Origin: Candidatus Moraniibacteriota bacterium
GTDB taxonomy: Bacteria > Patescibacteriota > Minisyncoccia > Moranbacterales > UBA1568
Assembly: GCA_028688415.1 (NCBI GenBank)
Contig: JAQTYF010000001.1
Location: 80,627-144,626, forward strand
Direction of reading: 5' to 3'
Length of the DNA stretch: 64,000 bases
In this document: one piece after another, positions 40,224 through 64,000 of the stretch
How the letters are laid out: each line of letters opens with the position of its first letter
Numbering within the stretch: position 1 is the first letter of the stretch
Made by a program: the position numbers and the translations under genes
Notes under the pieces: model-generated
The model's input: the letters and a program-made list of their open reading frames with translations, nothing else
Databases searched by the model: none
What the model was told of the DNA's origin: nothing

Positions 40224-40326
40224 TTTAACACTGCCTTATTTTTTGTAAAGTACTGGTGCTCTATTTCCTCAAAAAGCTCTTTTTTGTTAAAATATAAAAA
40301 GAAGGTATTTTTAGATATATATAAAT

Positions 40327-41196: not shown

Positions 41197-41252
41197 AATT
41201 TTCAATACGGAGTTTGATACAATACAATACACTGAAAATTTACTGTAATACT

Positions 41253-42497: not shown

Positions 42498-42522
42498 GCA
42501 TGTAATTGTTAATGAAGATTCT

Positions 42523-43317: not shown

Positions 43318-43331
43318 TTTTCTACACATAT

Positions 43332-44219: not shown

Positions 44220-44269
44220 AGAGATTACCGACATTTTTGACGCATTAAATACTTGAATACTGGTAAGTT

Positions 44270-44983: not shown

Positions 44984-45006
44984 TTATCAAAAGAGCGTAC
45001 TGAAAT

Positions 45007-46170
45007 ATGAAAATAGGTATAGATGCCAGGTTCTATGGCTCCATTGGGAAAGGACTCGGTCGTTATACGGAAAAACTTATCGAGTATCTTGAGCGAGTGG
45101 ATTCAGAAAACGATTACGTCGTTTTTTTGTTGCCAGAAAATTTTGATGAGTACATTCCGAAAAATGTACGTTTTCAGAAAGTTCTCTCACGGTATCCATG
45201 GTATGGTTTCTCAGAACAGTTTTTCTTTCCTTTTCAGCTTCTTTCGTATCATTTTGATCTCATGCACTTCCCTCATTTCAATGTCCCTATTCTGTATTGG
45301 AAGAAATTTGTCGTGACCATCCATGATTTGATACTTCTTCATTATCCGACAGCAGAGAATACTACCCGTTCACGATTTTTCTACGCAATGAAATTTATCG
45401 CATATCGTTTTGTGATTGCGTGTGCCGTATATCGATCCCATCATATTATCACTGTCTCTGCTTTTACGAAGGAGGATATCATTGCTACCTATCCCTCAAC
45501 ACAGAAGAAAATATCAGTGACGTATGAAGCAACGGATGAATGGTGTCAATTTCTTCTAAGAGAACAAGAATTAAAGTTATTTCGAACATTTGATTTACTG
45601 AAGTCTGATGTATCGGAAGAGCCTCTATCCAAACAGGTGAAATCGTATGTGCTCTATGTCGGCAATGCGTATCCGCATAAAAATCTGGATATATTCCTTG
45701 AACTTTCACCACGATTTCCAGAACAACTCTTTGTGCTCGTTGGAAAAGAAGATTTCTTCTATAAACGTCTTAAAAAAAGAGTGCAGGATAGACGTATTCA
45801 AAACATTCTTTTTCTTGGTTTCGTCGATGATTGGCAACTGAATACACTCTATCGTTTCGCTTCTTGTTATTTTTTCCCATCACTGTATGAGGGTTTCGGA
45901 CTCCCTCCTCTTGAAGCAATGGCACGAGGAATACCAGTACTTTCTTCTTCTCGAGGATCTCTCCCTGAGATTTTAGGCAATGCCGCACTTTATTTTGACC
46001 CCGATAGAGTAGATGATGGAGAGAAGAAACTTACAGAAATCCTTATTTCTGATACACTACGTATGAAGTGTATACGTCTGGGATATGCACATATCAGGCA
46101 ATACAGTTTTGATCGCATGGCAAGAGAAACGCGAGACGTGTATGAACGGAGTATAAAAAACAAACAGTAA
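45007..46170 (+). CDS. Family 4 (GT-B) glycosyltransferase
   Basis: '[20 protein letters not shown]' GT4 E-x7-E region. Confidence 0.8.
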
Positions 46171-46179
46171 AAAAGTGTT

Positions 46180-48360: not shown

Positions 48361-48374
48361 CTTTCTCAATATTC

Positions 48375-50030: not shown

Positions 50031-50099
50031 AGTATCTTTTGTAGAAACAAAGAGAGCATGCGCCTTGCTTTTAGGGCGTTTTTGCTTTATTCTGAGGAA

Positions 50100-51917
50100 A
50101 TGAATGAAATTACCCCACAAAAAAATATTCGAAACTTTTGCATTATTGCTCATATTGACCATGGAAAATCTACTCTAGCTGACCGTTTGATCGATCTGAC
50201 ACATACGGTGGAAAAACGGAAAATGAAAGAACAATTGCTCGATCAGATGGATCTCGAACGAGAACGTGGCATCACTATCAAGCTTCAGCCAGTCCAGATG
50301 CACTATATCTATGAGGGAGTGGAGTATATGTTGAATCTGATCGACACACCAGGACACGTAGACTTTCATTACGAAGTATCGCGCTCGCTTGCTGCAGTCG
50401 AGGGCGCTATCCTTCTCGTGGATGCTACCAAAGGAGTGCAGGCTCAGACACTTGCCAATCTCTATCTCGCTATTGAACAGGGTCTTGAAATCGTTCCTGT
50501 GATCAATAAAATTGATTTGCCGAATGCACAGGTAGAAAAAACCAAAAAAGAAATTGTTCATATTCTCGGATGCAAAGAAGAAGACATTCTCCTCGCTTCT
50601 GGGAAGACAGGGATGGGTGTACAAGCAGTACTCGAGCGAGTTATTACTCTTGTCCCTCCACCAAATGGAGATGCGGAAAAACCTCTTCGGGCACTTATTT
50701 TTGATTCTGTTTACAACACGTACAAAGGAGTCGTCGCGTATGTGAAAGTTGTTGATGGAAGTGTGAAGCGTGATGATATGCTCCATATGCTCGGAACAGA
50801 GAAAGAAGGAGTAACTGTTGAAGTAGGACTTTTTCATCCAAACCTCGTACCAACTGATATTCTTCGTGCTGGAGAGATCGGTTATATCGCTACAGGACTC
50901 AAAGAAGTGGGACACTGTCGCGTCGGAGATACAGTGACGTGGCGACTCAGAGACCGAGAAAAAGTGTTCGTGGAACGTCTCCCAGGGTACAAAGAAATCA
51001 AACCAGCCGTGTATGCGAGTTTCTATCCGCTTGATGGTGATGATTATACATTGATGCGTGACGCCTTGGATAAACTCAAGCTCAATGATGCTGCGTTCAC
51101 TTTCGAACCAGAAAGCAATCAGGCTCTCGGAAGAGGGTTTCGTTGTGGATTTCTCGGACTGCTCCATCTCGAAATTATTCAGGCCAGACTTGAGAGAGAA
51201 TTCGATCTCAGCCCGACGATTACAACACCGTCAGTTGTCTATGAAATTGCTTTGCATGGTGAGGAGAAACGCATTCCGTTGTATTCACCGACAAATCTTC
51301 CTGATCCATCAAGTATCGAGAAAATTTACGAACCATATGTCGCTCTTTCTATCGTGACGCCGAGTGAATATTTGGGAAATGTGATTACACTGACTTCGTC
51401 TATTCGTGCGGAATACAAAAATACAGAATACATCGATGAGGAACGGGTGCTCCTCTCTTTTGAAGCACCCCTGATGGATGTTATTGTCAACTTTCATGAT
51501 GATCTGAAAAGCGCTTCCTCGGGATATGCTTCGATGAATTATGAACCAATAGAATATCGAGCAAGCGACGTTGTCAAGCTTGAGATTCTCGTTGCGAATG
51601 AACACGTGGACGCTTTTGCTCGTATGATCCCTCGTCGGGATGCATACGGAGAAGGAAAACGTGTGGTAGAGAAATTGAAAGAAGTAATTCCGAAACAGAA
51701 TTTTGCTGTGGCTATCCAGGCTGCTATCGGAGGAAAAGTCATCGCTCGTGAGACGATCGCTGCGTTCCGTAAGGATGTGACAGGTGGTCTCTATGGGGGA
51801 GATTTTTCACGGAAGAAAAAGCTCCTTGAGAAGCAGAAAAAAGGGAAGAAGAAGATGCGTGATATCGGGAAAGTTTCTATTCCAGGAAGTGCTTTTCTCG
51901 CTGTGCTGAAGAAATAA
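50100..51917 (+). CDS. lepA: Elongation factor 4 (LepA)
   Basis: 'IRNFCIIAHIDHGKSTLADRL', 'DTPGHVDF', 'NKIDL', and the LepA C-terminal domain. Start moved to the Met at 50100. Confidence 0.95.
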   Translation: MNEITPQKNIRNFCIIAHIDHGKSTLADRLIDLTHTVEKRKMKEQLLDQMDLERERGITIKLQPVQMHYIYEGVEYMLNLIDTPGHVDFHYEVSRSLAAVEGAILLVDATKGVQAQTLANLYLAIEQGLEIVPVINKIDLPNAQVEKTKKEIVHILGCKEEDILLASGKTGMGVQAVLERVITLVPPPNGDAEKPLRALIFDSVYNTYKGVVAYVKVVDGSVKRDDMLHMLGTEKEGVTVEVGLFHPNLVPTDILRAGEIGYIATGLKEVGHCRVGDTVTWRLRDREKVFVERLPGYKEIKPAVYASFYPLDGDDYTLMRDALDKLKLNDAAFTFEPESNQALGRGFRCGFLGLLHLEIIQARLEREFDLSPTITTPSVVYEIALHGEEKRIPLYSPTNLPDPSSIEKIYEPYVALSIVTPSEYLGNVITLTSSIRAEYKNTEYIDEERVLLSFEAPLMDVIVNFHDDLKSASSGYASMNYEPIEYRASDVVKLEILVANEHVDAFARMIPRRDAYGEGKRVVEKLKEVIPKQNFAVAIQAAIGGKVIARETIAAFRKDVTGGLYGGDFSRKKKLLEKQKKGKKKMRDIGKVSIPGSAFLAVLKK

Positions 51918-51988
51918 TAAAAAAGTTCACGCAAAGAGTTTGCCCGCTGGGGCAAATGAATGGCTACCCAGAGAGATTGCTTGTGATA
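51918..51988 (+). repeat. Intergenic structured repeat element, copy C (3' half only)
   Basis: 'aaaaaagttcacgcaaagagttt.cccgctgggg.aaatgaatggct.cccaga.ag.ttgcttg' matches the 3' halves of copies A and B. Begins immediately after the lepA stop. Confidence 0.4.
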
Positions 51989-52080
51989 AGAAATCTTCCA
52001 TCTAAAGAATGGAATGATTTTTGCAAAATTGGGACGAAAACGGTATAATAAATGTGTAATATATTTTTATATAAATTCTT

Positions 52081-52398
52081 ATGGCAATGCAATTTACAGA
52101 CGCAAATTTCGAAGCAGAAGTATTGAAAAGTGATAAAATAACACTCGTCGATTTTTGGGCACCATGGTGTGGACCTTGTCAGTTGATGGGGCCAGTAATT
52201 GATGAACTCGCAGGAGAGATGACTACAGCCAAAATTGGTAAAGTAAACGTTGATGAAAACCCCAAGACAGCTGGCGCATACGGTATTATGTCTATTCCTA
52301 CCATCAAGGTGTTCAAGGCAGGTCAAGTAGTGAAGGAATTCGTCGGTGTTCAGGCCAAGGACAAATTGAAAGGTGAGCTCGAAAGTCTCGCAAAATAG
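52081..52398 (+). CDS. trxA: Thioredoxin
   Basis: 'WAPWCGPCQ' active site, 105 aa. Confidence 0.9.
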   Translation: MAMQFTDANFEAEVLKSDKITLVDFWAPWCGPCQLMGPVIDELAGEMTTAKIGKVNVDENPKTAGAYGIMSIPTIKVFKAGQVVKEFVGVQAKDKLKGELESLAK

Positions 52399-52435
52399 AT
52401 TCTTTGCGTCTTCTCGTTTATAAAAACAAAAAAGT

Positions 52436-52876
52436 ATGAAAATCCACAATGAAAAAATTTTGTTGGAAAGCAAAACTCAGATAGAGTTTATAGACATCAC
52501 TGATCGAGTCCAAGAAATCATCGATCATTCTGGTATCCGTGAAGGACAGGTGCTCGTGTATGTGCCTCATACGACTATGGGTGTCTGTATCAACCATAAT
52601 GAGCCGATGCTTATCCAGGACTTTATGCGGATTCTCTACAAAACGGTTCCTGTGGATGATCATTATTCTCATGACCTTTTTGAACTGCGTCGCGAGTCTG
52701 GCTCGGATGGTCGGAGCAATGGACACTCACACTGCAAATCTATTCTCTTGGGGAATAGTGAGACCGTTCCTCTCGAGAAAGGCAAACTTTCTCTTACGGA
52801 ACGTCAGAATATTTTCGCTGTCGAATTTGATGGCTCTCGGAAACGCGACATCAGTATCCAGGTCATTGGATTATAA
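52436..52876 (+). CDS. YjbQ-family protein (UPF0047, secondary thiamine-phosphate synthase-like)
   Basis: 'VPHTTMGVCINHNEP' and C-terminal 'GKLSLTERQNIFAVEFDGSRKR' match the YjbQ signature. Confidence 0.75.
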   Translation: MKIHNEKILLESKTQIEFIDITDRVQEIIDHSGIREGQVLVYVPHTTMGVCINHNEPMLIQDFMRILYKTVPVDDHYSHDLFELRRESGSDGRSNGHSHCKSILLGNSETVPLEKGKLSLTERQNIFAVEFDGSRKRDISIQVIGL

Positions 52877-52906
52877 TCTTTTTCTTTTGTAAGACAGTAT
52901 TCTTCT

Positions 52907-53920
52907 ATGCGTGTATTTCTTTTTATTGCTCTTACTCTCTCCCTTCTCACTCTCGGAGCTTTCTTTTTTCTTTCGTATGCGGAGGATGATTCTCATGGAT
53001 CCAGACGAGACATGCAGCGTTTTGTCGTGAACGAGGGGGATAATGTACTTACTCTATCGGAACATCTCGAGGATGCTCAGATTATCACATCACGTTATAT
53101 TTTGATGTGGCATCTGGCTCGTATCGGCAAGACACATGATCTCGTAGCAGGAACCTATAGTTTGAGCGGGGATCTCTCACCAACAGAAATTGCCTTCTTG
53201 ATTACTGAGGGCCGAGTCATTCCTCGAGATATCAAGGTGACCTTTCCAGAAGGATGGGAAAGCAAGAAGATGGCAGAACGACTCACTGCAAATAGTCTCC
53301 CTGGTGCGGATTTTTTGGCGTTGGCACAGACGCCAAAAGCTGAATGGCGAGAGAGATTTGATTTTTTGAAAGAAATCCCAGAAGATGCTTCTCTCGAAGG
53401 TTTTCTTTTCCCTGATACATACCTCTTTGATCGAGAAGCGTCGGCTCAGACTATCATCGAAAAAATGCTGACGAATTTCGAGAAAAAATGGAATACTTCT
53501 TTCCGTACCACAGCAAGAGATGAGAATAAAAATATTTATGAAATAGTGACGCTTGCCAGTATTGTCGAAAATGAAGTGAAATCGAATGCAGATCGAGCAA
53601 TGGTTGCTGACCTCTTCCTTCGTCGATTGAGTATCGGTCAAGCGCTGCAGAGCGATGCGACACTTCAATACATACTCGGATTGGACAAGGTAAAACATTC
53701 TTTCGAAGAGACCCGCACAGAGTCACCCTACAATACGTATGTGAATCCTGGTCTCCCACCGGGACCAATCGGTAATCCTGGAACATCCTCTCTACAAGCA
53801 ACCCTTTTTCCCAAGAAAAATCCTTATTTTTATTTTTTGAATGATACAAAGACAGGAGAAACTATTTTCTCGGTCACATTCGAAGAACACGTGAAAAACA
53901 AAAGTCTGCACGGATTGTAA
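52907..53920 (+). CDS. mltG: Endolytic murein transglycosylase MltG (YceG family)
   Basis: N-terminal TM, 'SPYNTYVNPGLPPGPIGNPG' YceG signature. Confidence 0.85.
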   Translation: MRVFLFIALTLSLLTLGAFFFLSYAEDDSHGSRRDMQRFVVNEGDNVLTLSEHLEDAQIITSRYILMWHLARIGKTHDLVAGTYSLSGDLSPTEIAFLITEGRVIPRDIKVTFPEGWESKKMAERLTANSLPGADFLALAQTPKAEWRERFDFLKEIPEDASLEGFLFPDTYLFDREASAQTIIEKMLTNFEKKWNTSFRTTARDENKNIYEIVTLASIVENEVKSNADRAMVADLFLRRLSIGQALQSDATLQYILGLDKVKHSFEETRTESPYNTYVNPGLPPGPIGNPGTSSLQATLFPKKNPYFYFLNDTKTGETIFSVTFEEHVKNKSLHGL

Positions 53921-53941
53921 GATTGATAGGATGTTTGTAGT

Positions 53942-55042
53942 ATGAAAATAGCTCTGGTACATGATTATTTGGTGCAATACGGGGGAGCAGAGCGAGTACT
54001 CGAGGCTTTCACTGAGCTGTTTCCGTATGCCCCGATCTATACACTCATCTATGACAAAGAAGCGATGCATGGGGTTTTCGAAAACAAACGTATCTACACG
54101 TCATTTCTCCAGCACTTTCCCTTTTCACGCAAACGACATCGTTTTTTTCCACCGCTTATGCCACTGGCTATTGAGCAGTTTGACTTGAGTAAGTATGATG
54201 TCGTATTGTCGGATTCATCGAGCTATGCCAAGGGTATCATCACTCGTCCTGAGACCCTCCATATCTGCTATATGCACACCCCGATGCGCTACGCGTGGGA
54301 TGATTGTCAGAAGTATACTCAAGATTTCGGATTTCCAGCGCTGGTGAAAAAAATTGTTCCATTTTTTATGAACCCGATTCGTCTCTGGGACAAATCTTCA
54401 GCTGACCGTGTGGATCATTTTCTGACGAATTCACAATTTGTTACTAAACGTATCAAGAAATATTATAACAAAGAAGCTCTCGTTGTTCATCCGCCAGTCA
54501 ATGTCAACCATTTCTTTCTTTCAGAAGAAAGACAGGATTATTTTCTTATTGTCGGTCGTCTCATTGCTTACAAGCGTCACGACATCGCTATCGAGGCCTT
54601 CAATCGGTTGAAACTCCCACTCAAAATTATCGGACGAGGACCAGAACTCGAACGTCTGAAGAAAATAGCTGGTCCGACGATCGAATTCCTTGGTCGTGTT
54701 CCCGAAGAAGAATTGCCAACATACTATGCCAAGTGTCGGGGATTTATTTTTCCTCAGGAAGAAGATTTTGGTATTGTGGCGATAGAAGCGATGGCGTCCG
54801 GTCGTCCGATCATTGCCTATCGTGCTGGAGATATCGTAGAACATCTGGAAGAGGGAAAGATGGGAGTTTTCTTTGATACACAGACGCCAGAAGCAATCAT
54901 TGATGCCGTACATCGTTTCCGTGACGACGACTACGACCCGGCGTATATCAGGAGTAGAGCCCTCCCTTTTGACAAAGAGCGATTTAAGACTACAATAAAG
55001 GACTATATAGAAAAAGCTTTGAAGAATCACCTTCAAAGCTAA
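53942..55042 (+). CDS. Family 4 glycosyltransferase
   Basis: GT-B fold, 'FPQEEDFGIVAIEAMASGRPIIAY'. Confidence 0.8.
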   Translation: MKIALVHDYLVQYGGAERVLEAFTELFPYAPIYTLIYDKEAMHGVFENKRIYTSFLQHFPFSRKRHRFFPPLMPLAIEQFDLSKYDVVLSDSSSYAKGIITRPETLHICYMHTPMRYAWDDCQKYTQDFGFPALVKKIVPFFMNPIRLWDKSSADRVDHFLTNSQFVTKRIKKYYNKEALVVHPPVNVNHFFLSEERQDYFLIVGRLIAYKRHDIAIEAFNRLKLPLKIIGRGPELERLKKIAGPTIEFLGRVPEEELPTYYAKCRGFIFPQEEDFGIVAIEAMASGRPIIAYRAGDIVEHLEEGKMGVFFDTQTPEAIIDAVHRFRDDDYDPAYIRSRALPFDKERFKTTIKDYIEKALKNHLQS

Positions 55043-55127
55043 AAATGATACAATGAACTAATTTCGAAATTGTGACATTAGAAATTGTTTGAAAATTAGA
55101 AATTGAAAATTGGTTAATTAAATTCGT

Positions 55128-55739
55128 ATGGAACTGAGAGAATATCTCGACATTTTCAAGAGACAAATCAAATGGTTTTGGATAACTATTCTTTTGTTTC
55201 TTTTCATAGCGGGAGCATGGCAACAAAATCAGCCAGAGACATTGGAAGCCACACTGCTCCTCAATATTGGTCGTGCCAGTGTTCAAGATACTCGAGACTA
55301 CACATTCGATAGTTTTTATCGATTGCAGGCAGACGAACGTTTTGCCGATACAGTAGTGAGGTGGCTCGGTTCTTCTCGTGTCGCAGAAGATATCTATAGA
55401 GCAGTTGACAGAGAGACGAGAGATATGAGCACTCAGACACTCGAGAACGTTTTTGAAGCGAAGCGCTTGTCTTCTCAGATGATCGAAGTGACGTATGCAC
55501 ATCCAGACTATGAGACACTCCAAAAAATGTCTGAAGCGACAGTCACGCATCTGAACAACTACGCAGAACAATTGAACAAAGAAAGTCGTGAACAAACCCA
55601 TTGGTTTACGATTGTGGGCAGCGACCCTATCATTCGTGATGTACGGATTACTCTTTCTTTTGCTCTTTCGGTCGGACTGGCTTTTGGAATATTTATCGGA
55701 TTTTGGGTGGCGCTTATAAAACACTATTTCTCAAAGTGA
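55128..55739 (+). CDS. Wzz-like polysaccharide chain-length determinant family protein (short form)
   Basis: 'LREYLDIFKRQIKWFWITILLFLFIAGAW' Wzz N-terminal pattern. TM at both termini. Confidence 0.5.
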   Translation: MELREYLDIFKRQIKWFWITILLFLFIAGAWQQNQPETLEATLLLNIGRASVQDTRDYTFDSFYRLQADERFADTVVRWLGSSRVAEDIYRAVDRETRDMSTQTLENVFEAKRLSSQMIEVTYAHPDYETLQKMSEATVTHLNNYAEQLNKESREQTHWFTIVGSDPIIRDVRITLSFALSVGLAFGIFIGFWVALIKHYFSK

Positions 55740-56899
55740 TGCGGATAGGAATCGATATACGGTGTCTGGCAGAAGGAAAACGTACGGGAGTGGAAGAATA
55801 TACTATTGCTCTTCTTTCTGGACTTTTCGAACAATTTCCAGAGAATGACTACATTCTTTTTTTCAATGCATGGAAGAAGCAACTTCCTGATTTCTCGTGG
55901 GCGACTCGGTATCCCAATGTGACACTGCGAGTGTTCCATTTTCCAAATAAATTGCTCAATTTCTCACTCTGGTACTTCCGTTTTCCGAAACTCGATACAC
56001 TTATTGGCGGTACGGATGTATTTTTTCTTCCGAATTTGAACTTCTCCGCTGTTTCTCGTAAGACGAAACTGGTGGTGACAGCACACGACCTGTCATTCGA
56101 ACTCTTCCCAGACACTTTCTCTCTGAAACGTCGTATCTGGCATTTTTTCATCAATTTCAGAAGTCTAGTTCGGAACGCTGACGCTGTGATTGCCGTATCA
56201 GAATCGACCAAGAATGACCTCATAGATTACTACGGTGTTTCAGAAAAGAAAATAACCGTGATCCACAGTGGCATAGGAGAACAATTCTCCGTGATGAGTC
56301 GTAATGATACGAACCTTGTTCGAGTACAGGAGAAATATCATCTGCCATACAAATTCATCCTTTCTCTTTCGACATTCGAACCACGCAAGAACCTACTTGC
56401 TCTCATATCAGCCTTTGATGCATTGATGGCACTCGACCATCCTGTACTCAAGAAATATATGCTCGTGATTGCTGGTACACGTGGGTGGAAATATCGAGAG
56501 ACGTTTCAAGCGATCAAAAACTCTCCATACAGAAAAAACATTCTCCTGACGGGATTTATCGCCGATGAGGACAAATCCGCGCTTTATAATCTTTCGAGTC
56601 TTTTTGTTTACCCATCATTTTATGAAGGATTCGGATTTCCACCTCTCGAAGCGATGGCGTGCGGTGTGTCTGTCATCGCTTCCCATTCGTCTTCTCTCCC
56701 AGAAATAGTCGGTTCGGCAGGGATACTCGTCGATCCGTATCGACCAGACGAGCTCTTCCAGGCGATGAAACAGGTCTTGCTCGATCCAGAACTCCTAGAC
56801 ACACTCCGTAAACAAAGCGAACTGCGAGCACGTGATTTCCAGTGGAGCACTTCCATCGCATCGACGGCTCATATCTTCTCTTCGATTGTTGAAAACTGA
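55739..56899 (+). CDS. Family 4 glycosyltransferase
   Basis: 'YEGFGFPPLEAMACGVSVIAS'. Start at the Met at 55739 (MRIGIDIR) overlaps the previous stop by 1 nt. Confidence 0.8.
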   Translation: MRIGIDIRCLAEGKRTGVEEYTIALLSGLFEQFPENDYILFFNAWKKQLPDFSWATRYPNVTLRVFHFPNKLLNFSLWYFRFPKLDTLIGGTDVFFLPNLNFSAVSRKTKLVVTAHDLSFELFPDTFSLKRRIWHFFINFRSLVRNADAVIAVSESTKNDLIDYYGVSEKKITVIHSGIGEQFSVMSRNDTNLVRVQEKYHLPYKFILSLSTFEPRKNLLALISAFDALMALDHPVLKKYMLVIAGTRGWKYRETFQAIKNSPYRKNILLTGFIADEDKSALYNLSSLFVYPSFYEGFGFPPLEAMACGVSVIASHSSSLPEIVGSAGILVDPYRPDELFQAMKQVLLDPELLDTLRKQSELRARDFQWSTSIASTAHIFSSIVEN

Positions 56900-56927
56900 G
56901 CATTGTTTCGAAAAATGATGTTTTTTC

Positions 56928-56956
56928 GAGCTTCCTTGACAGCTCGTTTTTTTTTG
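56928..56956 (+). terminator. Rho-independent terminator after glycosyltransferase
   Basis: 'cgagct-tccttgac-agctcg' followed by T9. Confidence 0.55.
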
Positions 56957-57102
56957 CAAAAAATATGATACAATTACCACAGAGAGATGTCGATATCTCT
57001 TCTCGTTAGACTCTCTGACGAAAATGTAAGAAAACAAACAGTTGTGCGTCATAAGAAACAGAGAGGAATATAATCCTCATAGTAAATAATAATAAAAAGT
57101 GT

Positions 57103-58506
57103 ATGAAGGAGAAAAACACAAAGAAGATAGGCACAGGAGCAGCATTACTCATAGCAGTAATGTCTTTTAGTTCGTTTTTTGCCGTGGCATCGTTGGTAGG
57201 GAAGAACCAATCTCCTCTGACTCCAGTCAGTCTTGCGAGTGATAATGAGGGGGAAGATGGTAATGATTCAGATGAGAACAAAGACGAGGAAGATGATGAC
57301 AAGGATGAGGTGAAGTCTGCTTCTGAAAAAGCTAAGAAAGAGAAAGAAAAATCTCGAGAAGATTTGAAGAAGCGTTCTGAACGTGCAAAAGAGTCCAATA
57401 AGCAAACCACAGAACAAGATTCTGATGATGAAGAAGATAATAATGATGAAAACGAAGGAGATGAAAACGACGAGAACGACGACAATGATGGAGATGTAGA
57501 TGACGATATGGATGAAGAAGATGATGATTCTTATGGTCAGGCACGAGGAGGGGATTTCGAGGGCATGTACAAAGACAGCGCGAAAACCCTTTCAAAATTG
57601 CAGGAAAATATAGCAGAAGCTGAGAAACATATTCTCGAAAAACAAGCAGAAGGAGTCGATGTGACTACTGCTCTTGCTGAGCTGAGTCTTGCCAAGGCCA
57701 AATTGGCTGGAGTAAGTACAGCATTTACTGCAAGCAATTTCGAGATGGCCAAGAAATTGTCCAAAGAAATCAAAAAAGAATCACTTTTCAGCGAGAAAGA
57801 TCTCGAGTTCAAGAAAGATATGACTGAGTCGATAGCAGAAGTGATGAAGAAATTTACGAAAGTAGAGAAGAAAATTGCCTCGCTCGTCGCTCTTGGTGGC
57901 GATTCGACGACGTTCAACACACAATTGGCGTCACTCCGAGCTGATTTTGATGTCTTACAAACTTCATCACTCGTGACACGAACTGATGCGAGAGCTTTCG
58001 AGAAAAAAGCTGAACGATTGAAGAATCTCGTCGAGCAATCAATTTTTGCTCTCGGTGGCACAGAAGAAGATGATGATCTCTATGCCGATCATGAAGAAGA
58101 TGCGGATGATCTCGATGAAGATTTGAATGATGTGGCTGAGATCGAAGACGGTGATGACAATGGTGTTGCGAAGAAGGTTCGTGCTATTGCAGCAGAACAC
58201 CGCTCATCAGTAGCTGATATCGCCAAAAGTTTGAGTGATATTCAGAATCAGAGCGGATTTACAAAAACAGTTTTTGGTCCTGATGCTACCGCCTTGAATG
58301 GTCTCACAGCACAGACGACTGCTATGACGGCTCGTGCTGATGCATTGACGACTGCCTCTACACAGGTGACCGATCCTGATGTGAAACAGATTCTCACAGA
58401 TCGTGCATCAGCACTGCGTAGTGAGGCTTCCAAGCTTCAGGCGTATCTCACTGCTACGACAAACCAGTTCAGTATCTTCGGAAAATTCCTCTCTCTCTTT
58501 CGCTAG
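57103..58506 (+). CDS. Membrane-anchored, highly acidic (D/E-rich) coiled-coil protein
   Basis: N-terminal TM (AALLIAVMSFSSFFAVASLV). About 100-aa Asp/Glu/Asn low-complexity region, then long helical heptad-like segments and a second acidic block (EEDDDLYADHEEDADDLDEDLND). Confidence 0.5.
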   Translation: MKEKNTKKIGTGAALLIAVMSFSSFFAVASLVGKNQSPLTPVSLASDNEGEDGNDSDENKDEEDDDKDEVKSASEKAKKEKEKSREDLKKRSERAKESNKQTTEQDSDDEEDNNDENEGDENDENDDNDGDVDDDMDEEDDDSYGQARGGDFEGMYKDSAKTLSKLQENIAEAEKHILEKQAEGVDVTTALAELSLAKAKLAGVSTAFTASNFEMAKKLSKEIKKESLFSEKDLEFKKDMTESIAEVMKKFTKVEKKIASLVALGGDSTTFNTQLASLRADFDVLQTSSLVTRTDARAFEKKAERLKNLVEQSIFALGGTEEDDDLYADHEEDADDLDEDLNDVAEIEDGDDNGVAKKVRAIAAEHRSSVADIAKSLSDIQNQSGFTKTVFGPDATALNGLTAQTTAMTARADALTTASTQVTDPDVKQILTDRASALRSEASKLQAYLTATTNQFSIFGKFLSLFR

Positions 58507-58526
58507 CGAAGAGAAGGAAAGAAAAC

Positions 58527-58557
58527 AATCCCTTATCCTTGATGAGGGATTTTTTCT
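58527..58557 (+). terminator. Rho-independent terminator
   Basis: 'aatccct-tatccttgatg-agggatt' followed by 'tttttc'. Confidence 0.55.
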
Positions 58558-58622
58558 TTTGTGATTTCTGTGATATTCTAATGGTGTAGCAAATTTTGTA
58601 AAATAAATCGACACGTATCACT

Positions 58623-59234
58623 ATGGATAAGAAATCAAAAATATTTTTTGCCGTATTTTTTCTACTCATTGTTCTCTCTGTTGGAGCGACCTACTATCGG
58701 TATGTCGTGGCGCATGACTATATGATTCAGGCAGAGTTAGACTGTGATCCCTATACTGAATCTTGTTTCGTCTATGTTTGTGATCCGGAAGCTGATGAAG
58801 AATGTACCGGAGATCCGATAGAAGATACTTCGTATTACAAACTTATCGATCGCAATGCCAAGAATATTCCTCTTTGTGATCCTGCCGATGAAAATTGTAC
58901 TGCTCTCGTGTGTGAAGAAGGGGAGGTAGACTGCTCATACACACTCTGTGATCCAGAGACAGCCGAAGAGGGTGAAGTGTGTAATGATCCAGTTGTGTAT
59001 ACAGCCGAGAATCCGATAGAAGAAGAAACAGATGAAGCAGTGGATGAAGAAGGAGCTACTACTCTGACTGAGGACGAAGAAAGTATCCCTGCTACCGAAG
59101 GCGAAGAAACAGCAAATGAAACAGTCGAAGGAGAAGAAACAACAGAAACTCCTGCAAATGCTAATGAAACAGAACCTGTATCTACCGAAGCATCCATCAC
59201 TCCTGCAGTTTCTGGGACGGTTATCGTGCCCTAG
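58623..59234 (+). CDS. Membrane-anchored Cys-rich protein with four C-D-P-x(n)-C repeats and acidic Glu/Thr-rich tail
   Basis: N-terminal TM (IFFAVFFLLIVLSVGATYY). 'CDPYTESC', 'CDPEADEEC', 'CDPADENC', 'CDPETAEEGEVC' repeats (12 Cys). C-terminal E/T-rich low complexity. Confidence 0.5.
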   Translation: MDKKSKIFFAVFFLLIVLSVGATYYRYVVAHDYMIQAELDCDPYTESCFVYVCDPEADEECTGDPIEDTSYYKLIDRNAKNIPLCDPADENCTALVCEEGEVDCSYTLCDPETAEEGEVCNDPVVYTAENPIEEETDEAVDEEGATTLTEDEESIPATEGEETANETVEGEETTETPANANETEPVSTEASITPAVSGTVIVP

Positions 59235-59365
59235 TATATTTGATTCATATCGCTATCGGTATTTAGCTATGACATAGCAGAAGAGGGTTTTTTCGGACAC
59301 GTTTCGAAGTCTTTTTTTATTTTGCAGATCTTACAAATATAGTAGCCAAGAAGCTCACACAATCT

Positions 59366-59394
59366 TTGAAAGTACAGGTGAAAACCGGTATAAT
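59366..59394 (+). promoter_or_regulatory. Near-consensus sigma70-type promoter (TTGAAA-17-TATAAT) about 100 nt upstream of the fusion gene
   Basis: 'ttgaaa' 59366-59371, a 17-nt spacer, and 'tataat' 59389-59394. Confidence 0.45.
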
Positions 59395-59494
59395 GGACGG
59401 GTATATCACCGATGCGCATGTGTACAAAAACACCTATGACGATGCATTCGATATCCTGAGTACGTATCTTAATCAAACAGCTACAGCTTAATAT

Positions 59495-61213
59495 ATGAAG
59501 CTTTATTGTATTTCAGGGAATAAAAAGAAACTTGATCATTATCAAGAATTGCAAAAGATATTTTCTTCACGTCTTTTTGACATTGTTCCCAAAGAGATAA
59601 CTACTTCCGAAATACAGTCAGTAAAAGGAGAAGAGGTTGTCCGGGAGAAAATGAATCAAATACGTAAACAAACATCGATGCCTTTTATTGTTGATGATGT
59701 TTCTTTGCTTGTTGGATCGAATGCTTACCCAGGAGCACTAATAAAGCATCTACTAGAAAATAATAATACCGAAACGATACCACAATTCTTGCCAGACAAA
59801 ACACCTGTTGTAGTGGTTTGTTATCTCGGATATTTTGATGGTTTTGACTCTTTCATATTTAAGGGTGAGTTACGAGGAGAAACTCACTTTGATTCTTTGG
59901 ATGTCCGTGCCCCGATTCAGTTGGATACTCTCATCTTTGCTCATGGTGTCCCTCTTGGTGTTGTTGATTCTACCGAAAATCATCGAGGGAAAGCCTTTCA
60001 GGAATTAGTGAAACACATTGAATCAGTCAGAGAAGAGCGTGAACGACATAATGTACAGGTAGCTGAACGTTGGAGCAAACGAGCAAACGAGTGGCAATCA
60101 GTACGTGAGGATGTTGCGTCCTATGTGAATCATGAGAATGGCTATGATCGTTTCGATACTGAAGTAAACCGTATTTTGCCTTTTATATTTGGTACGGCTA
60201 TTGATGTTGGTTGCGGTGATGGAGCTGTCACGAGGCTTATTTCCTCGAATGCGAACATAAAGAACATCATTGGAATGGACATCAGTTCAGAAATGATCCA
60301 AACAGCTACAAAGAACACAACAGACAGTCGAATTCGGTATGAAGTTAGTTCATTTTTGAATACTAATAAAAGAAAGTATCATCTTATCACCTCGAGAGGT
60401 GTCGTGTTGTCGCATATGCATAAGACAGATGTTCTTCCGACGCTTATAGCGTTTGCAGAGTCTCTTGAGACAGATGGTTTCCTCGTCTTTGATTATATTA
60501 GTAATATAGATAACAATGATGATGCAGGGAGAATGCAGAAAAATCAGTTGAGTAAAGAGTGGATCCTTGCCGTTTTGACAGAGCTTGGGCTCGTAAATAT
60601 TTCGTATAACGGATCCGAGACTCATAGAGTGAGTATACTCGTATTTCATAAACCAATTCCACAATCAGTATATTTTGCCACTGGCAATGCTACCAAGGTT
60701 CTCGAACTGAAAAATAAATGTAAGAATCATATCATTCATTTGGCAAATGTTGATGTTACAGAAATCAAGAGTGATGACATTGTGGAGATTGCAAAAGATA
60801 AGGCAATGAAGAGTTACACTGTATTACATCACCCTGTCATTGTGACCGATGGAGGTATATTTATTCATGCGTTGAATGAATTCCCTGGTCCAAATTCTAA
60901 ACAGGCAGCGATGCTTCTCGGGCCAAAAAAGATACTCGCCTTGATGGAGAATGAAATTGATAGAACTGCTATCAGGCGAAATTGTATGGTTTTTTTTGAC
61001 GGACATAACTATAAAATTTGTATTGCAGAAGTACCTCTTCTTATAAGTCATGATATTACGACGAGTAAATATGATGCCTATCCATTGGATTCTATACTGA
61101 TACCAATACATACTGACAATCTTAAAAAACAAACCTATAAGCAAATGACTGTTACGGAACGCTTGATGTTTACCGAATTACCATTTTTTGAAGAATTCCT
61201 TGCTACACTTTGA
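59495..61213 (+). CDS. Tri-domain fusion: HAM1/ITPase-like NTP pyrophosphatase + class I SAM-dependent methyltransferase + second HAM1/ITPase-like domain
   Basis: N-terminus: 'YCISGNKKKL...E', 'VDDVSLLVGSNAYPGALIKH', 'NHRGKAF' match the Ham1/RdgB motifs (ATGNxGKxxE; DDSGLxVxALxGxPGxYS; SHRGxA). Middle: 'AIDVGCGDGAVTRL...IIGMDIS' is MTase motif I/II. C-terminus: 'YFATGNATKVLE', 'VTDGGIFIHALNEFPGPNSKQAA' are a second Ham1-like set. Confidence 0.6.
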   Translation: MKLYCISGNKKKLDHYQELQKIFSSRLFDIVPKEITTSEIQSVKGEEVVREKMNQIRKQTSMPFIVDDVSLLVGSNAYPGALIKHLLENNNTETIPQFLPDKTPVVVVCYLGYFDGFDSFIFKGELRGETHFDSLDVRAPIQLDTLIFAHGVPLGVVDSTENHRGKAFQELVKHIESVREERERHNVQVAERWSKRANEWQSVREDVASYVNHENGYDRFDTEVNRILPFIFGTAIDVGCGDGAVTRLISSNANIKNIIGMDISSEMIQTATKNTTDSRIRYEVSSFLNTNKRKYHLITSRGVVLSHMHKTDVLPTLIAFAESLETDGFLVFDYISNIDNNDDAGRMQKNQLSKEWILAVLTELGLVNISYNGSETHRVSILVFHKPIPQSVYFATGNATKVLELKNKCKNHIIHLANVDVTEIKSDDIVEIAKDKAMKSYTVLHHPVIVTDGGIFIHALNEFPGPNSKQAAMLLGPKKILALMENEIDRTAIRRNCMVFFDGHNYKICIAEVPLLISHDITTSKYDAYPLDSILIPIHTDNLKKQTYKQMTVTERLMFTELPFFEEFLATL

Positions 61214-61288
61214 CAATTGACTCTTTTGAGAATAGTAAATGGTGGTGCAATAATGCAACATCATGCCTATTCTGAAAAGGAGAGAGCG

Positions 61289-61867
61289 ATGAAAAAGATA
61301 ACTATCTGTGTTTTTGGTGTCAATGGTGTTGGCAAGTCAGTTCTTTTGGAAGCTGTGCAGGATATACATCCTGATGCTATTGTTGTGCGTGGAAGTACTC
61401 TCCTCAAAGAGGCTTTGAGCGTAGCTTCTTATGAAGCTCTGGAATCGATGTCTTCATGCGTGAAGAAGAAGGCAATAATCGATAGTATCATAGCGCTGAC
61501 TGAGGATACGAAAAGTCCTATCACAATAGTGGACACACATTTGGTTGTGCCTATCCGTAAATCTCATGAATTGACTGTCGAAGATATGTGGGATGATGGA
61601 TTGCTTGGATGCTTTCAAGGCTTCATTTACATTCAGGCACATCCATCGATGGTTTCTGAACGACGTCAGATCAACGGAGATCGCGTATTACGTGCTCTCA
61701 ATTCCAGTTCAGAGGTCTGCTCTGAGGATCTTCGGTTGAATGCTTGTCGTTGGGATGAGATTTGCCCGAAGATGCAGAACAAGAAAGTGATAGTGAATGA
61801 CCAGTCAGTGTTTATTGGAGCGATGAAGATATCTCACTTCATCAGAGAATTGCAGGTATCTTTTTGA
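61289..61867 (+). CDS. P-loop NTPase, small kinase-like protein (putative nucleoside/nucleotide kinase)
   Basis: Walker A 'ICVFGVNGVGKS', Walker-B-like 'ITIVDTHLVV', Arg-rich lid-like 'RRQINGDRVLRAL'. About 190 aa. Start moved to the Met at 61289. Confidence 0.5.
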   Translation: MKKITICVFGVNGVGKSVLLEAVQDIHPDAIVVRGSTLLKEALSVASYEALESMSSCVKKKAIIDSIIALTEDTKSPITIVDTHLVVPIRKSHELTVEDMWDDGLLGCFQGFIYIQAHPSMVSERRQINGDRVLRALNSSSEVCSEDLRLNACRWDEICPKMQNKKVIVNDQSVFIGAMKISHFIRELQVSF

Positions 61868-61975
61868 CTTCACGAGATGTTGTGCGAGAGATGGGCGTTC
61901 CGAATAATATTTGGAGCCCCATTTTTTTATGTAAAGCTATTTTTTATGATAAAATAGGGTATAATCAAATAAAAT

Positions 61976-62761
61976 ATGTTAAATCTTTTGAAAAAAATAC
62001 TCATTGTAGGAAGTACTCACGGTCACGAAAGGATCGGTTTAAAGGTGATCGATGAATTGAAAAAACTGAATGTAGGGAGCGATGTGCTTCAGTTTGAAGT
62101 TGGCAATCCAAGGGCTTCAGAAAAAAACATTCCTTTTACTGAGAATGATTTGAATCGTGTTTTTCCAGGGAAAGAACATGGTACCTATGAAGAAATGCGA
62201 GCGTATGAATTGTCTCCGAAAATCAAAGAATCGGACTTGGTGATAGATATCCATTCGACAAATACTACAGATCTGAGTGATAGATCCGTGCTTATAGTGA
62301 CTAGCTATAACCAGGCGACGAAAGATATTATAGACGTAATCAAGCCACCCAAGGTTCTCTATATGAAGTATAAAGGAGACAACGCATTAATCTCTCAAGC
62401 AAAAGTTGGTATAGCTTTCGAATATGGTAAAGATTCGAGTACTGAAGTACTCAATGCTATTTTGTATGATATCGCAGAAGTATTGATGTATTACGGTCTT
62501 GTGGAAAAAAATCCCTATAAAACGATCAAACCTATAACTGAAACTGAAATATTTGAAGTGTATGATGTATTCAAGAAAGATTTCGTCGGTCCTCACAAAT
62601 TTTATCCAAATATAAAAAATTTCGTAAATGTAGCGAAAGGTGAGACAATCTGTAGTACAGAGAGTGATGAGCAGATACTCGCAGAAGAAGATTTTATACC
62701 AATATTATTTGGCGAGAACAGATATACGGATATACTCGGGTTCAAGGCGAAGAAGATTTAA
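61976..62761 (+). CDS. AstE/AspA-family (succinylglutamate desuccinylase/aspartoacylase-like) zinc hydrolase
   Basis: 'ILIVGSTHGHERIG' (HxxE zinc motif) and 'NRVFPG' are hallmarks of the AstE_AspA / M14-like family. TATAAT at 61956-61961 upstream. Confidence 0.65.
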   Translation: MLNLLKKILIVGSTHGHERIGLKVIDELKKLNVGSDVLQFEVGNPRASEKNIPFTENDLNRVFPGKEHGTYEEMRAYELSPKIKESDLVIDIHSTNTTDLSDRSVLIVTSYNQATKDIIDVIKPPKVLYMKYKGDNALISQAKVGIAFEYGKDSSTEVLNAILYDIAEVLMYYGLVEKNPYKTIKPITETEIFEVYDVFKKDFVGPHKFYPNIKNFVNVAKGETICSTESDEQILAEEDFIPILFGENRYTDILGFKAKKI

Positions 62762-62942
62762 TAATACACACTATTTTTTGCAAAAAATGGGGATTTGGGG
62801 TAGAACATGAGTGCAAGAAGTGCCTTTTTTTTGAAGAAGAGAGTTTTTAGATTTTTGACAGTTTTATACTTCTGATGTATTGTTTTATTTTAGTCGAATG
62901 AATCAATAATTCATTTTTTAAACTTTATTTTTTAAAAAATAC

Positions 62943-64000
62943 ATGAACACAATAGATACATCTGATAATATTAAGGGAAACAGTGAAGTTAATGTGAGTA
63001 AATTTGGAGTAGCTCCACAATTGGATGGTTACTATTTTTCACCAGAAAGAGCAAGAGAAGCGAGAGATCAGGGGCGACTATTGTCTATAAGGATTGAGCC
63101 AAGTTTTCGGTGTAATTTACGTTGTGAGTATTGTTATAATAAAAATTATCAATCTTTACCTGATGAAATTAGTTATTCTGAATTGGAAGACATTATTTAT
63201 CAAGCAAAAGAACTCGGCGCTGAATCTATTGTGAATATCGGAGGAGGGGAACCGACCATTTACCCTCGATTTAAGGATTTGACGATATTTATTAATTCGC
63301 TAGGTATGGTCCCTGTTATTTTCACGAACGCTCAAACAATGACAAAGGATCTCGCAAAGTTTTTATTTGATAATAACGTTTCGGTAATTATTAAATTTGA
63401 TTCATTAACGGAAAGTATACAAGATTCTTTATCAGGAGTGAAGGGTGCTCACAGAAATATTATGCAAGGGCTGGATAATTTATTGAAGGCCGGTTATGCT
63501 CACACAAAAAGTGACCAAAAGCTTAAATTAGGAGCCTCGTTCGTTATAAGCAAGAAGAATGCACATGAAGTTGTTGGCTTGTGGAAATTTTGTAGAGAGC
63601 GGAAAATATTTCCAAACTTGGAGATGATGACTCCTAATGAAACAGGAACGAATGCTGAGAAAAATCTTTTAAGCAGACAAGAATGGAAAGAAATTAAAAT
63701 GCAACTTCTGGAAATTGACCGGAACGACTACGGTTTTGATTGGTTACCATTTACTCCCTTAGTTGGAAGTGGTTGTTTCCAGTTAATGTATAGTTTTTAT
63801 ATTACTGCAAGAGGATTTGTTCGCCCATGCGCTGCGATTGAAGTAGAATACGCAAATATAAAAGATTATTCTTTAAAAAATATAATGAAACTTCCTTTTT
63901 ATCAGATGGCAAGAAATATTGACAAACATTTACAGGGGAAGTGTGGTGGATGTAAACATATATTAAATTGTCTGGGGTGTAGAGGAATGGCGTTCTCAAT
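62943..64000 (+). CDS. Radical SAM enzyme with C-terminal SPASM/twitch-like Cys-rich domain (partial; runs off window end)
   Basis: My own translation from ATG 62943 has no stop to position 64000. 'PSFRCNLRCEYCYN' (CxxxCxxC), 'NIGGGEPT'. C-terminal cysteines in 'GSGCF', 'RPCAA', 'GKCGGCKHILNCLGCRG'. Confidence 0.7.
   Translation, partial: MNTIDTSDNIKGNSEVNVSKFGVAPQLDGYYFSPERAREARDQGRLLSIRIEPSFRCNLRCEYCYNKNYQSLPDEISYSELEDIIYQAKELGAESIVNIGGGEPTIYPRFKDLTIFINSLGMVPVIFTNAQTMTKDLAKFLFDNNVSVIIKFDSLTESIQDSLSGVKGAHRNIMQGLDNLLKAGYAHTKSDQKLKLGASFVISKKNAHEVVGLWKFCRERKIFPNLEMMTPNETGTNAEKNLLSRQEWKEIKMQLLEIDRNDYGFDWLPFTPLVGSGCFQLMYSFYITARGFVRPCAAIEVEYANIKDYSLKNIMKLPFYQMARNIDKHLQGKCGGCKHILNCLGCRGMAFS

Follow-up and report, generated by a model that had tools for sequence, protein, structure and literature searches.

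Ham1-Methyltransferase-Ham1 Fusion Proteins of Patescibacteria as a Candidate Module for Modified Cytosine Nucleotides

The 64,000-nucleotide stretch of Candidatus Moraniibacteriota bacterium DNA analyzed here (the window; contig JAQTYF010000001.1) encodes, at 59495..61213 on the + strand, a 572-amino-acid (aa) protein with an ATG start, in which two domains of the Ham1/ITPase family of nucleoside triphosphate (NTP) pyrophosphatases enclose a class I S-adenosylmethionine (SAM)-dependent methyltransferase. We propose that this Ham1-methyltransferase-Ham1 protein is the fused nucleotide-handling module of an operon whose enzymes act on mononucleotides to produce a cytosine nucleotide that is both methylated and modified at C5, a reading that we judge to have about an even chance of being correct. 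It builds on the domain identities, conservation, operon structure, fusion network, and diagnostic residues observed in the family and its neighbors; from these we infer which substrates are used, in what order the steps run, what the product is, and whether it ends up in DNA, in RNA, or as a free metabolite. A pathway like that of phage T4 is proposed because the cassette repeats the phage logic of a pyrophosphatase, a C5 modifier of the thymidylate synthase (TS) superfamily, and a dedicated kinase. The C-terminal Ham1 domain (C-Ham1) would convert (d)CTP to (d)CMP and pyrophosphate, feeding the next enzyme and lowering the canonical triphosphate pool. A TS-like enzyme, encoded by the upstream gene in related genomes, would then attach either a hydroxyl or a one-carbon group to the C5 position of this nucleotide, and the central methyltransferase would methylate that product, most plausibly on the new hydroxyl or hydroxymethyl group or, alternatively, on a ring O or N as in bacimethrin. 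The downstream protein, which resembles nucleoside monophosphate (NMP) kinases, would re-phosphorylate the modified monophosphate, and general kinases could take it on to the triphosphate. The N-terminal Ham1 domain (N-Ham1), dispensable in some lineages, may be a second, more orthodox pyrophosphatase that sanitizes the pool or excludes an unwanted NTP, or a nucleotide-binding partner of C-Ham1. The original prediction, made from the letters of the window, had the protein hydrolyzing and/or methylating a nucleotide-like substrate, and a nucleotide-directed role of this kind is the most reasonable interpretation of three genuine domains.

All three domains scored above their Pfam thresholds when the whole protein and then each piece separately were scanned (curated cut-offs of 22.5 bits for Ham1p_like and 27 bits for Methyltransf_25). 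N-Ham1 (aa 1 to 180; 59495..60034, + strand) matched Ham1p_like (PF01725) on its own with 44.7 bits (E = 1.9e-11; match at aa 4 to 132), and C-Ham1 (aa 389 to 572 plus stop; 60659..61213, + strand) matched the same family with 65.4 bits (E = 8.3e-18). Between them, a long helix and the methyltransferase (aa 181 to 388; 60035..60658, + strand) matched Methyltransf_25 with 47 bits (E = 4.2e-12) and passed the threshold in five Pfam models in all (Methyltransf_25/23/11/31/12). The reading frame and every motif quoted in the original prediction are present in the translation, namely, SGNKKK (aa 7 to 12), VDDVSLLVGSNAYPGA (aa 66 to 81), and NHRGKAF (aa 162 to 168) in the N-terminal set; DVGCGDG (aa 237 to 243) and GMDIS (aa 260 to 264) in the methyltransferase; and ATGNATKVLE (aa 395 to 404), TDGGIFIHALNEFPGPNSKQAA (aa 451 to 472), and YDAYPLD (aa 526 to 532) in the C-terminal set. 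An AlphaFold2 model built on a 27-sequence family alignment was confident throughout (mean predicted local distance difference test [pLDDT] score of 90.5; predicted template modeling [pTM] score of 0.86), with no disordered segment and with a helix of about 40 residues (aa 163 to 205) connecting N-Ham1 to the methyltransferase. Foldseek recovered both expected folds from this model: the ITPases 1b78 (target TM-score of 0.86), 2j4e, and 1v7r, all with a probability of 1.00, and the small-molecule methyltransferases NodS, DhpI, BioC, and ChlM. By profile and by fold, the protein thus belongs to the Ham1 and class I methyltransferase superfamilies, and the three-domain claim stands.

The fusion recurs well beyond the window. 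A search of 5.8 billion proteins returned 28 relatives, mostly full length and collinear, with identity down to 34%, and an HMMER scan of 1.84 billion cluster representatives returned 49 proteins at E ≤1e-30, with about 16 of these 50%-identity clusters having the full or nearly full architecture. In a local profile census of the matches, 32 proteins carried N-Ham1, methyltransferase, and C-Ham1, and 8 carried methyltransferase and C-Ham1. Since collinear homologues, about 30 of them full length, recur in independent Patescibacteria metagenome assemblies, an assembly artifact or frameshifted concatenation of separate genes is ruled out, as it is by the confident single-chain model; the fusion is real, and the same architecture occurs in other Patescibacteria genomes. 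The earlier description of it as unprecedented was too strong: the window protein had already been deposited (MDD2766251.1/MDD3964816.1) under the generic name "non-canonical purine NTP pyrophosphatase," it has these homologues, and the fusion of an ITPase-superfamily protein to a methyltransferase has a precedent in ASMTL. A literature search, whose coverage was incomplete so that absence is not proven, found no description of this architecture or cassette in Patescibacteria. Cassette loci numbered 10 among 185,579 species (one genome per species), those with informative names being Patescibacteria or Uhrbacteria, and the family is genuine, restricted, and rare. Five records of third-party-annotation metagenome-assembled genomes with a Patescibacteria-type cassette (L014, L015, L016, L017, and L022) are titled "uncultured Gammaproteobacteria bacterium," a label that looks like a placeholder or misassignment.

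The two Ham1 copies differ in conservation and in motif content. C-Ham1 is complete in all family members and has a mean pairwise identity of 0.57, compared to 0.48 for the methyltransferase and 0.32 for N-Ham1. Its signature (N/S398, K401, E423, K436, T451-D452, K469, Y529, D532, and T560-E561-L562) is invariant; Thr replaces the first acidic residue of the canonical (E/D)D pair, TEL replaces SHR, and Y-P-L-D stands at the position of the aromatic motif. All matches of at least 216 bits to a C-Ham1 model carry this T-D/TEL signature; ordinary stand-alone Ham1 proteins score at most 133 bits and are mostly of the canonical (E/D)D ... (F/W)xD type. Because the signature shows so clear a score gap from ordinary Ham1, C-Ham1 is, judged by its residues, a distinct Ham1 subfamily whose base specificity has probably changed. 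The replacement of His-Arg by Glu-Leu would suit an enzyme that recognizes bases with an amino group, not 6-keto bases. Among NCBIfam models, the C-terminal copy is closest to archaeal XTP/dITP diphosphatase, far under the equivalog cut-off, and its best solved relative is Methanocaldococcus jannaschii Mj0226 (1b78; E = 1.8e-16, 30% identical).

N-Ham1 keeps N9, K12, E39, K52, D67-D68, K84, and the SHR-like H163-R164 in 22 of the 27 members and is reduced to about 90 to 120 degenerate residues in the other 5; it has no FGYDP-type aromatic motif. Its best solved relatives are KomB (8zsg; E = 2.8e-6), followed by the Plasmodium falciparum and human ITPases. The L011/L022 type has lost N-Ham1 and half of the methyltransferase; what remains is a methyltransferase remnant without motif I joined to C-Ham1. 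Weaker conservation than in C-Ham1, together with truncation in five members, makes N-Ham1 a dispensable module. The suggestion of a pseudo-enzyme, drawn earlier from the N-terminal copy, singled out the wrong feature: that copy keeps the canonical residues in most members, and it is C-Ham1 that has the invariant non-canonical substitutions. Of the two aromatic-motif assignments made earlier, YDAYPLD as the FGYDP-like element of the C-terminal copy holds, aligning with the corresponding FAYDSIFIP stretch of Mj0226; HFDSLD is probably not its N-terminal counterpart, the family alignment, as we interpret it, placing the equivalent at about aa 142 to 148 (QLDTLIF). The core Ham1 catalytic and phosphate residues (GN..K, E, K, (E/D)D, and PG..K) are present in both copies, T451 excepted. 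Since neither copy as a whole has the purine (6-keto) recognition motifs FGYDP and SHR, these two Ham1-fold domains are probably not orthodox ITP/XTPases. A recent internal duplication is ruled out by the divergence of the copies from each other (22% identical, E = 2.4); the protein is a fusion of two long-separated Ham1 lineages. Protein P0175 (388 aa) has two Ham1 domains in tandem without any methyltransferase, and covalent Ham1 tandems therefore exist outside the Ham1-methyltransferase-Ham1 family.

In related genomes the fusion gene is the middle member of a tight cassette in which the stop codon of one gene often overlaps the start codon of the next. It follows a TS-like gene, whose product has about 245 aa (about 205 aa at some loci), and precedes a gene for a P-loop protein of about 190 aa. 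The kinase-like gene lies directly 3' of C-Ham1 in every locus examined, and the TS-like gene lies directly 5' of the fusion gene in 11 of the 13 distinct loci outside the window that could be assessed. Beyond the cassette, the neighboring genes vary by locus and include those for aminoacyl-tRNA synthetases, Ddl/Alr, and ABC transporters. The kinase gene of the window (61289..61867, + strand; 192 aa from the ATG at 61289, the mechanical open reading frame starting at TTG 61217) is intact, and its product is 54% identical to the L001 kinase over 189 aa. Matches of the window kinase to AAA_17 and to the archaeal adenylate kinase PRK04040 are weak; the L003 homologue passes the threshold (AAA_17, 49.8 bits; PRK04040, E = 1.7e-13), and the L007 kinase is full length by tblastn. 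A dedicated predicted nucleotide kinase, homologous in all loci, is thus part of the operon, as in T4-type cassettes. The earlier alternatives of sanitizing or producing a modified nucleotide had been offered for the fusion gene by itself, leaving unmentioned both the TS-like remnant upstream and the kinase downstream; with this operon context, a "sanitizing enzyme" becomes a "module of a modified-pyrimidine pathway."

The TS-like family scores above the Pfam threshold for TS, and the model nearest to it is TIGR03283 (archaeal TS), whose cut-off it does not reach; a search of the family profile against Protein Data Bank sequences gave no match at E ≤0.01. Invariant in this family are, among others, DYLPC (the nucleophile context), RSxD, and DxHxYxNT. 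Residues were mapped by a single-sequence phmmer alignment to MilA, with a constant +4 offset relative to the numbering of the MilA paper. On this mapping, C152 is the catalytic nucleophile (MilA C155), and the invariant D188 corresponds to MilA D186, to D179 of the phage T4 dCMP hydroxymethylase (T4 CH), and to ThyA N177, where Asp is found in cytosine-specific enzymes and Asn in uracil-specific ones (PMC5175136, PMC8670742, PMC13326640). S178 corresponds to MilA A176, a position with Ser in deoxyribo-specific enzymes and Ala in ribo-specific enzymes; K126 corresponds to MilA K133', which is Arg in TS and T4 CH; D180 corresponds to ThyA D169, where Asn marks 5-hydroxy-dCMP synthases; and Y149 corresponds to ThyA L143, which is Leu for methylation and Asp or Glu for hydroxymethylation. 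The short variant (L014/L016/L017) likewise has Asp at the N177 position ("RSQDVGKKIYADI," by our interpretation). This marker points to a cytosine-type enzyme. In line with it, a model of the TS-like protein (pLDDT of 78.7) is by TM-score nearest to the phage dCMP hydroxylase AfhB (9iqu) and to MilA, ahead of canonical thymidylate synthases. The related loci accordingly encode, next to a pyrophosphatase as in T4-type cassettes, a TS-superfamily enzyme that has the catalytic Cys and, at the ThyA-N177 position, Asp; in the window its gene is a 56-codon 3' remnant.

The invariant Asp also bears on a more conventional interpretation, a variant of housekeeping dTTP synthesis in which Ham1 would stand in for dUTPase, the TS-like protein would be a thymidylate synthase and the kinase a thymidylate kinase, with the methyltransferase as an accessory. 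The order of pyrophosphatase, TS, and kinase does mirror Dut, ThyA, and Tmk, the TS-like proteins are annotated as thymidylate synthase in their sources, and two dCTP-deaminase-family genes lie near the L001 cassette. Such a pathway would call for Asn rather than Asp at the N177 position; the cassette is moreover very rare, the TS-like gene of the window is a remnant while its partners are intact, and the QueC-like, pyridoxal phosphate (PLP), and B12-radical-SAM genes and the methyltransferase have no place in dTMP synthesis. We consider this interpretation very unlikely.

Across loci, the TS-like genes are paired with several pyrophosphatases: the Ham1 fusion, a stand-alone Ham1, NUDIX (beside the TS-like gene in L010 and L012), and a gene with weak likeness to MazG. 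Some lineages also encode further proteins: a QueC-like PP-loop protein, a HisC/CobD-like PLP enzyme, a B12-binding radical-SAM enzyme, a protein with a cytidylate-kinase domain, and nucleoside diphosphate kinase (NDK), the last two adjoining one fusion of a TS-like domain to the methyltransferase. Divergent QueC-like PP-loop and HisC/CobD-like PLP genes are inserted 5' of the short TS-like gene in some cassettes (L014, 41..1126; L016, 499..2368; L017, 1494..2273), and at a Saccharibacteria-type locus, where NUDIX takes the place of Ham1, the QueC-like gene (L010, 5732..6481) comes after the TS-like gene. The inserts suggest lineage-specific extra chemistry on the same nucleotide.

The methyltransferase ties the fusion protein to TS-like chemistry. 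It has motif I (DVGCGDG) and the invariant acidic motif II residue D262 of class I enzymes, together with a conserved Arg-rich N-terminal extension (R192, W193, R196, SYVNHENGYxRF, and R219) and, elsewhere in the family alignment, invariant R301 and R378; this array of Arg would be compatible with a phosphorylated substrate. The same subfamily, extension included, occurs in several other fusions: with a TS-like domain in proteins of about 410 aa (P0171, P0172, P0173, P0217, and P0293 to P0295), with N-Ham1 only (P0160 to P0162), with LOG (P0177), and with LOG in the N-terminal position and Ham1 (P0169). In locus L023 the parts are unfused, with TS-like protein (288 bits to the TS-like family model), B12-radical-SAM enzyme, Ham1 of the C-Ham1 type, methyltransferase of the same subfamily, and kinase encoded by separate genes of one operon. 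Because these Rosetta-stone fusions and the unfused operon link the two activities, the methyltransferase very likely acts on the nucleotide or base produced by the TS-like enzyme. The L023 B12-binding radical-SAM gene (2713..4176, - strand) lies between the TS-like gene and the stand-alone Ham1; such enzymes often methylate unactivated carbons. The TS-methyltransferase fusion of L024 adjoins a gene for a 731-aa protein (2925..5120, - strand) whose cytidylate-kinase domain scores above cut-off (37.7 bits) and which weakly resembles, under the threshold (E = 0.04), the phage Mom family of DNA-modification proteins; genes for an AAA_17 kinase and for NDK lie nearby.

The same gene content invites comparison with antimetabolite synthesis. 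LOG proteins are nucleotide N-glycosidases, and the bacimethrin genes, reportedly described by Cooper, O'Leary and Begley in 2014, are said to comprise BcmA (TS-like), a glycosidase, a methyltransferase, and a kinase, a set that resembles the cassette. The cassette could, by analogy, serve a free-base, antimetabolite, or cofactor pathway in which CTP is cleaved to CMP, the TS-like enzyme makes 5-hydroxymethyl-CMP, an N-glycosidase frees the base, the methyltransferase methylates the pyrimidine, and the kinase activates it. BcmA is a TS-like protein with Asp at the specificity position (PMC5175136), and the LOG domains of P0169 and P0177 could supply the missing activity, as could genes adjoining the TS-methyltransferase fusions that are weakly Nuc_deoxyrib_tr-like (E = 0.012); these matches, like the weak MazG-like ones among the same neighbors, fall under the Pfam threshold and are hints. 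The window-type cassette, however, contains no glycosidase, its kinase is of the NMP-kinase (adenylate-kinase-like) rather than the ThiD-like type, and Ser at the MilA-A176 position favors deoxyribonucleotides (PMC5175136). A bacimethrin-type pathway therefore seems unlikely to us.

Several points weigh against the proposal that the fusion protein serves a T4-like cytosine pathway. The TS-like gene of the window survives as a 3' remnant at 59321..59491 (+ strand), a pseudogene fragment holding the last approximately 56 codons plus the stop, with about 190 codons missing from its 5' end. In a tblastn search with the L007 TS-like protein, aa 192 to 247 matched 59321..59488 (75% identity, E = 3e-23), and no other part of the gene was found in the 64-kb window; the translation ends in ADLTNIVAKKLTQSLKVQVKTGIMDGYITDAHVYKNTYDDAFDILSTYLNQTATA followed by a stop, with further stops upstream, and the remnant ends 3 nucleotides before the ATG of the fusion gene. 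One related species (L003/L004/L020) also lacks the TS-like gene and keeps fusion gene and kinase, so the pair can persist without it and must either have value on its own or have lost its partner recently. In the TS-like enzyme itself, the position that would tell methylation from hydroxymethylation holds the uninformative Tyr149, and Lys in place of the Arg126' typical of deoxyribo-specific enzymes makes the sugar specificity ambiguous. Pyrimidine specificity would be unusual for the Ham1 family, whose canonical members prefer ITP/XTP, and to our knowledge nucleotide-level replacement of a DNA base occurs in viruses and not in cellular genomes. No phage homologue of the tri-domain protein came to light: tblastn against 50,697 phage records gave no match, and BFVD yielded none spanning more than one domain, results by which a phage origin is also ruled out. 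Finally, all substrates and products are inferred. With its TS-like gene reduced to a 3' remnant, the window would hold a truncated pathway, one that genes elsewhere in the genome complete, or one cut back to the functions of pyrophosphatase, methyltransferase, and kinase.

Loss of the TS-like gene from a pair that is otherwise kept keeps the sanitizing-enzyme idea alive. In that scenario the Ham1 domains would hydrolyze non-canonical or methylated purine NTPs and the methyltransferase would mark or detoxify the nucleotide, independently of any TS-like gene. N-Ham1 would suit the task, since it retains all the canonical ITPase residues including H-R, and the intact pairs of the window and of L003/L004/L020 need no TS-like partner for it; Maf pyrophosphatases, which are fused to a methyltransferase in ASMTL, act on methylated NTPs (PMC3899018). 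The fusion gene is nevertheless tightly and repeatedly linked to TS-like genes, its methyltransferase subfamily is fused to TS-like domains, and C-Ham1, the constant domain, has lost the SHR motif of purine recognition. An NMP kinase beside a sanitizing pyrophosphatase would, moreover, run a futile cycle unless the monophosphate were altered between the two. Stand-alone house-cleaning is thus, in our view, unlikely.

A putative sigma-70-like promoter (TTGAAA-17-TATAAT, 11/12 consensus matches, the best of the region) lies at 59366..59394 on the + strand, inside the TS-like remnant and about 100 nucleotides 5' of the fusion-gene ATG. Such sites are no more numerous in the region than expected from shuffled sequence, and this one is a possible promoter of the truncated operon. 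A pattern match to a terminator-like hairpin followed by a T-run (61897..61917, + strand) after the kinase gene is the likely end of a two-gene transcription unit. Farther upstream, the window encodes a nucleotidyl transferase, three GT4 glycosyltransferases (two with GT4-conflict Pfam matches), DUF4012, MurJ, LepA, and YceG/MltG (43332..56899), followed by a 467-aa low-complexity protein that is extremely acidic (D/E-rich) and has a hydrophobic segment at its N terminus (57103..58506) and a 203-aa Cys-rich acidic protein with an N-terminal transmembrane-like segment (58623..59234), which abuts the TS-like truncation point; neither of these two belongs to a Pfam family. Downstream of the kinase lies a gene of the AstE/AspA family (succinylglutamate desuccinylase/aspartoacylase-like; 61976..62761), and a gene of the same Pfam family occurs near the L001/L002 cassette (3014..3943) with GCS2 (carboxylate-amine ligase) and Peptidase_S66. 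Because the upstream genes are of cell-envelope and housekeeping types, the region is not a prophage; the context is a Patescibacteria chromosome (MurJ, LepA, YceG, and aminoacyl-tRNA synthetases). Across the window (1..64000), gene-like open reading frames of at least 180 aa are almost all on the + strand and cumulative GC skew climbs almost monotonically, which fits a single replichore with strong gene-strand bias. Elsewhere, a bAvd-like gene (diversity-generating retroelement accessory; L005, 4879..5232) lies directly 5' of the TS-like gene in L005/L006, and ThsB_TIR, a reverse transcriptase, and helix-turn-helix regulators are encoded near the L003/L004 cassette (1102..3607).

Neighbors of this kind raise the question of whether the system could act in anti-phage defense or another conflict, with the fusion protein as a Ham1-like nucleotide sensor or depleter in the manner of KomB of Kongming or of dCTP-depleting defenses. 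KomB is the best solved relative of N-Ham1, the ThsB_TIR and reverse transcriptase genes near L003/L004 are matched by restriction-modification genes near L011, and the QueC-like partner weakly resembles QatC. Yet PADLOC models matched nothing except through a generic methyltransferase hit, which leaves a known defense system without support; no SIR2, deaminase, or nuclease effector is linked to the cassette, housekeeping genes flank it in the window and at most loci, and all its constant partners are biosynthetic-type enzymes. We regard a defense role as extremely unlikely.

A bolder form of the cytosine-modification proposal would be that some Patescibacteria make a methylated, C5-modified cytosine nucleotide, such as 5-methoxymethyl- or 5-methoxy-(d)CTP, at the free-nucleotide level by means of a Ham1-type (d)CTPase, a cytosine-specific TS-like enzyme, the methyltransferase, and the kinase, and place it in their own DNA or RNA, with add-ons (QueC-like, PLP, B12-radical-SAM, and LOG) diversifying the product. 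We think this improbable. It would give a cellular genome its first route to hypermodified pyrimidines at the nucleotide level and the Ham1 family a new, pyrimidine-directed branch. If the cytosine-modification proposal itself is correct, the Ham1/ITPase family, known as a stand-alone purine house-cleaning enzyme, would gain a branch with changed base-recognition motifs, serving as a biosynthetic feeder hard-wired to a methyltransferase. The strategy of pyrophosphatase, TS-like enzyme, and kinase, so far a hallmark of phage DNA hypermodification, would also be found in the chromosomes of ultra-small symbiotic bacteria, the Patescibacteria, which have minimal nucleotide metabolism and scavenged nucleotides. 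Modified cytosines in their DNA or RNA, or a secreted pyrimidine antimetabolite directed against their hosts, would become possibilities, and the fusion network of methyltransferase with TS-like, LOG, and Ham1 domains, with the unfused B12-radical-SAM operon, would offer candidate enzymes for new nucleotide chemistry. The architecture and the fusion network should surprise a specialist; the window copy itself, eroded to a TS-like remnant upstream, makes for a less dramatic example.

Among known systems, canonical Ham1/RdgB/ITPA proteins (Mj0226, PH1917, and human ITPA) share the fold and the core phosphate and metal residues (N, K, E, K, D, and K) with both domains of the fusion protein. They are stand-alone proteins of about 190 aa, in contrast to a fusion in which C-Ham1 has T-D/TEL and N-Ham1 lacks FGYDP. 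KomB, the HAM1-like Kongming subunit, is the closest solved sequence relative of N-Ham1 and an instance of the Ham1 fold used outside house-cleaning; unlike in Kongming, no KomA (deaminase) or KomC (SIR2) neighbors occur at any examined locus. Human ASMTL and the eukaryotic Maf-methyltransferase fusions likewise join an ITPase-superfamily pyrophosphatase covalently to a SAM methyltransferase, and both ASMTL and the archaeal linkage of Maf and methyltransferase genes have been taken to suggest a functional relationship (PMC3899018). ASMTL, however, has Maf (PF02545) as its one pyrophosphatase domain, a C-terminal methyltransferase, and no linkage to TS-like or kinase genes, whereas the window protein matches Ham1p_like and not Maf; the likeness is an analogy at the level of the ITPase superfamily only.

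Bacimethrin (BcmABCD) and mildiomycin (MilA/MilB) synthesis also combine a cytosine-specific, Asp-bearing TS-like hydroxymethylase with a methyltransferase and a kinase, and the parallel extends to a LOG/SLOG domain only through the LOG-containing variants P0169 and P0177. Those pathways act on CMP, free the base, use a ThiD-type kinase, and have no fused pyrophosphatase; the window-type cassette differs from them in lacking a glycosidase and in having the deoxyribose-type Ser at the MilA-176 position. Among the closest parallels is the modified-dCTP pathway of phage T4 (gp56 dCTPase, gp42 dCMP hydroxymethylase, and gp1 dNMP kinase), with the related phage 5-hydroxy-dCMP and 5-hm-dUMP pathways, which place the same three-step logic in one gene cluster. 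In phages with modified pyrimidines, pyrophosphatase action both yields the monophosphate and lowers the level of the canonical triphosphate; C5 is modified by an enzyme of the TS superfamily, and the product is returned toward the triphosphate by a kinase dedicated to it (PMC13326640). The Patescibacteria cassette departs from this scheme in that its pyrophosphatase has the Ham1/ITPase fold, whereas the phage enzyme is of the dCTPase type matched to dCTP pyrophosphatase structures (PMC13326640); its kinase resembles archaeal adenylate kinase rather than gp1; a SAM methyltransferase is built into the pyrophosphatase polypeptide; and the host is a cellular chromosome rather than a virus. The cassette may therefore be seen, by analogy, as a cellular, Ham1-based, and methyltransferase-containing version of the nucleotide-level strategy of pyrimidine modification.

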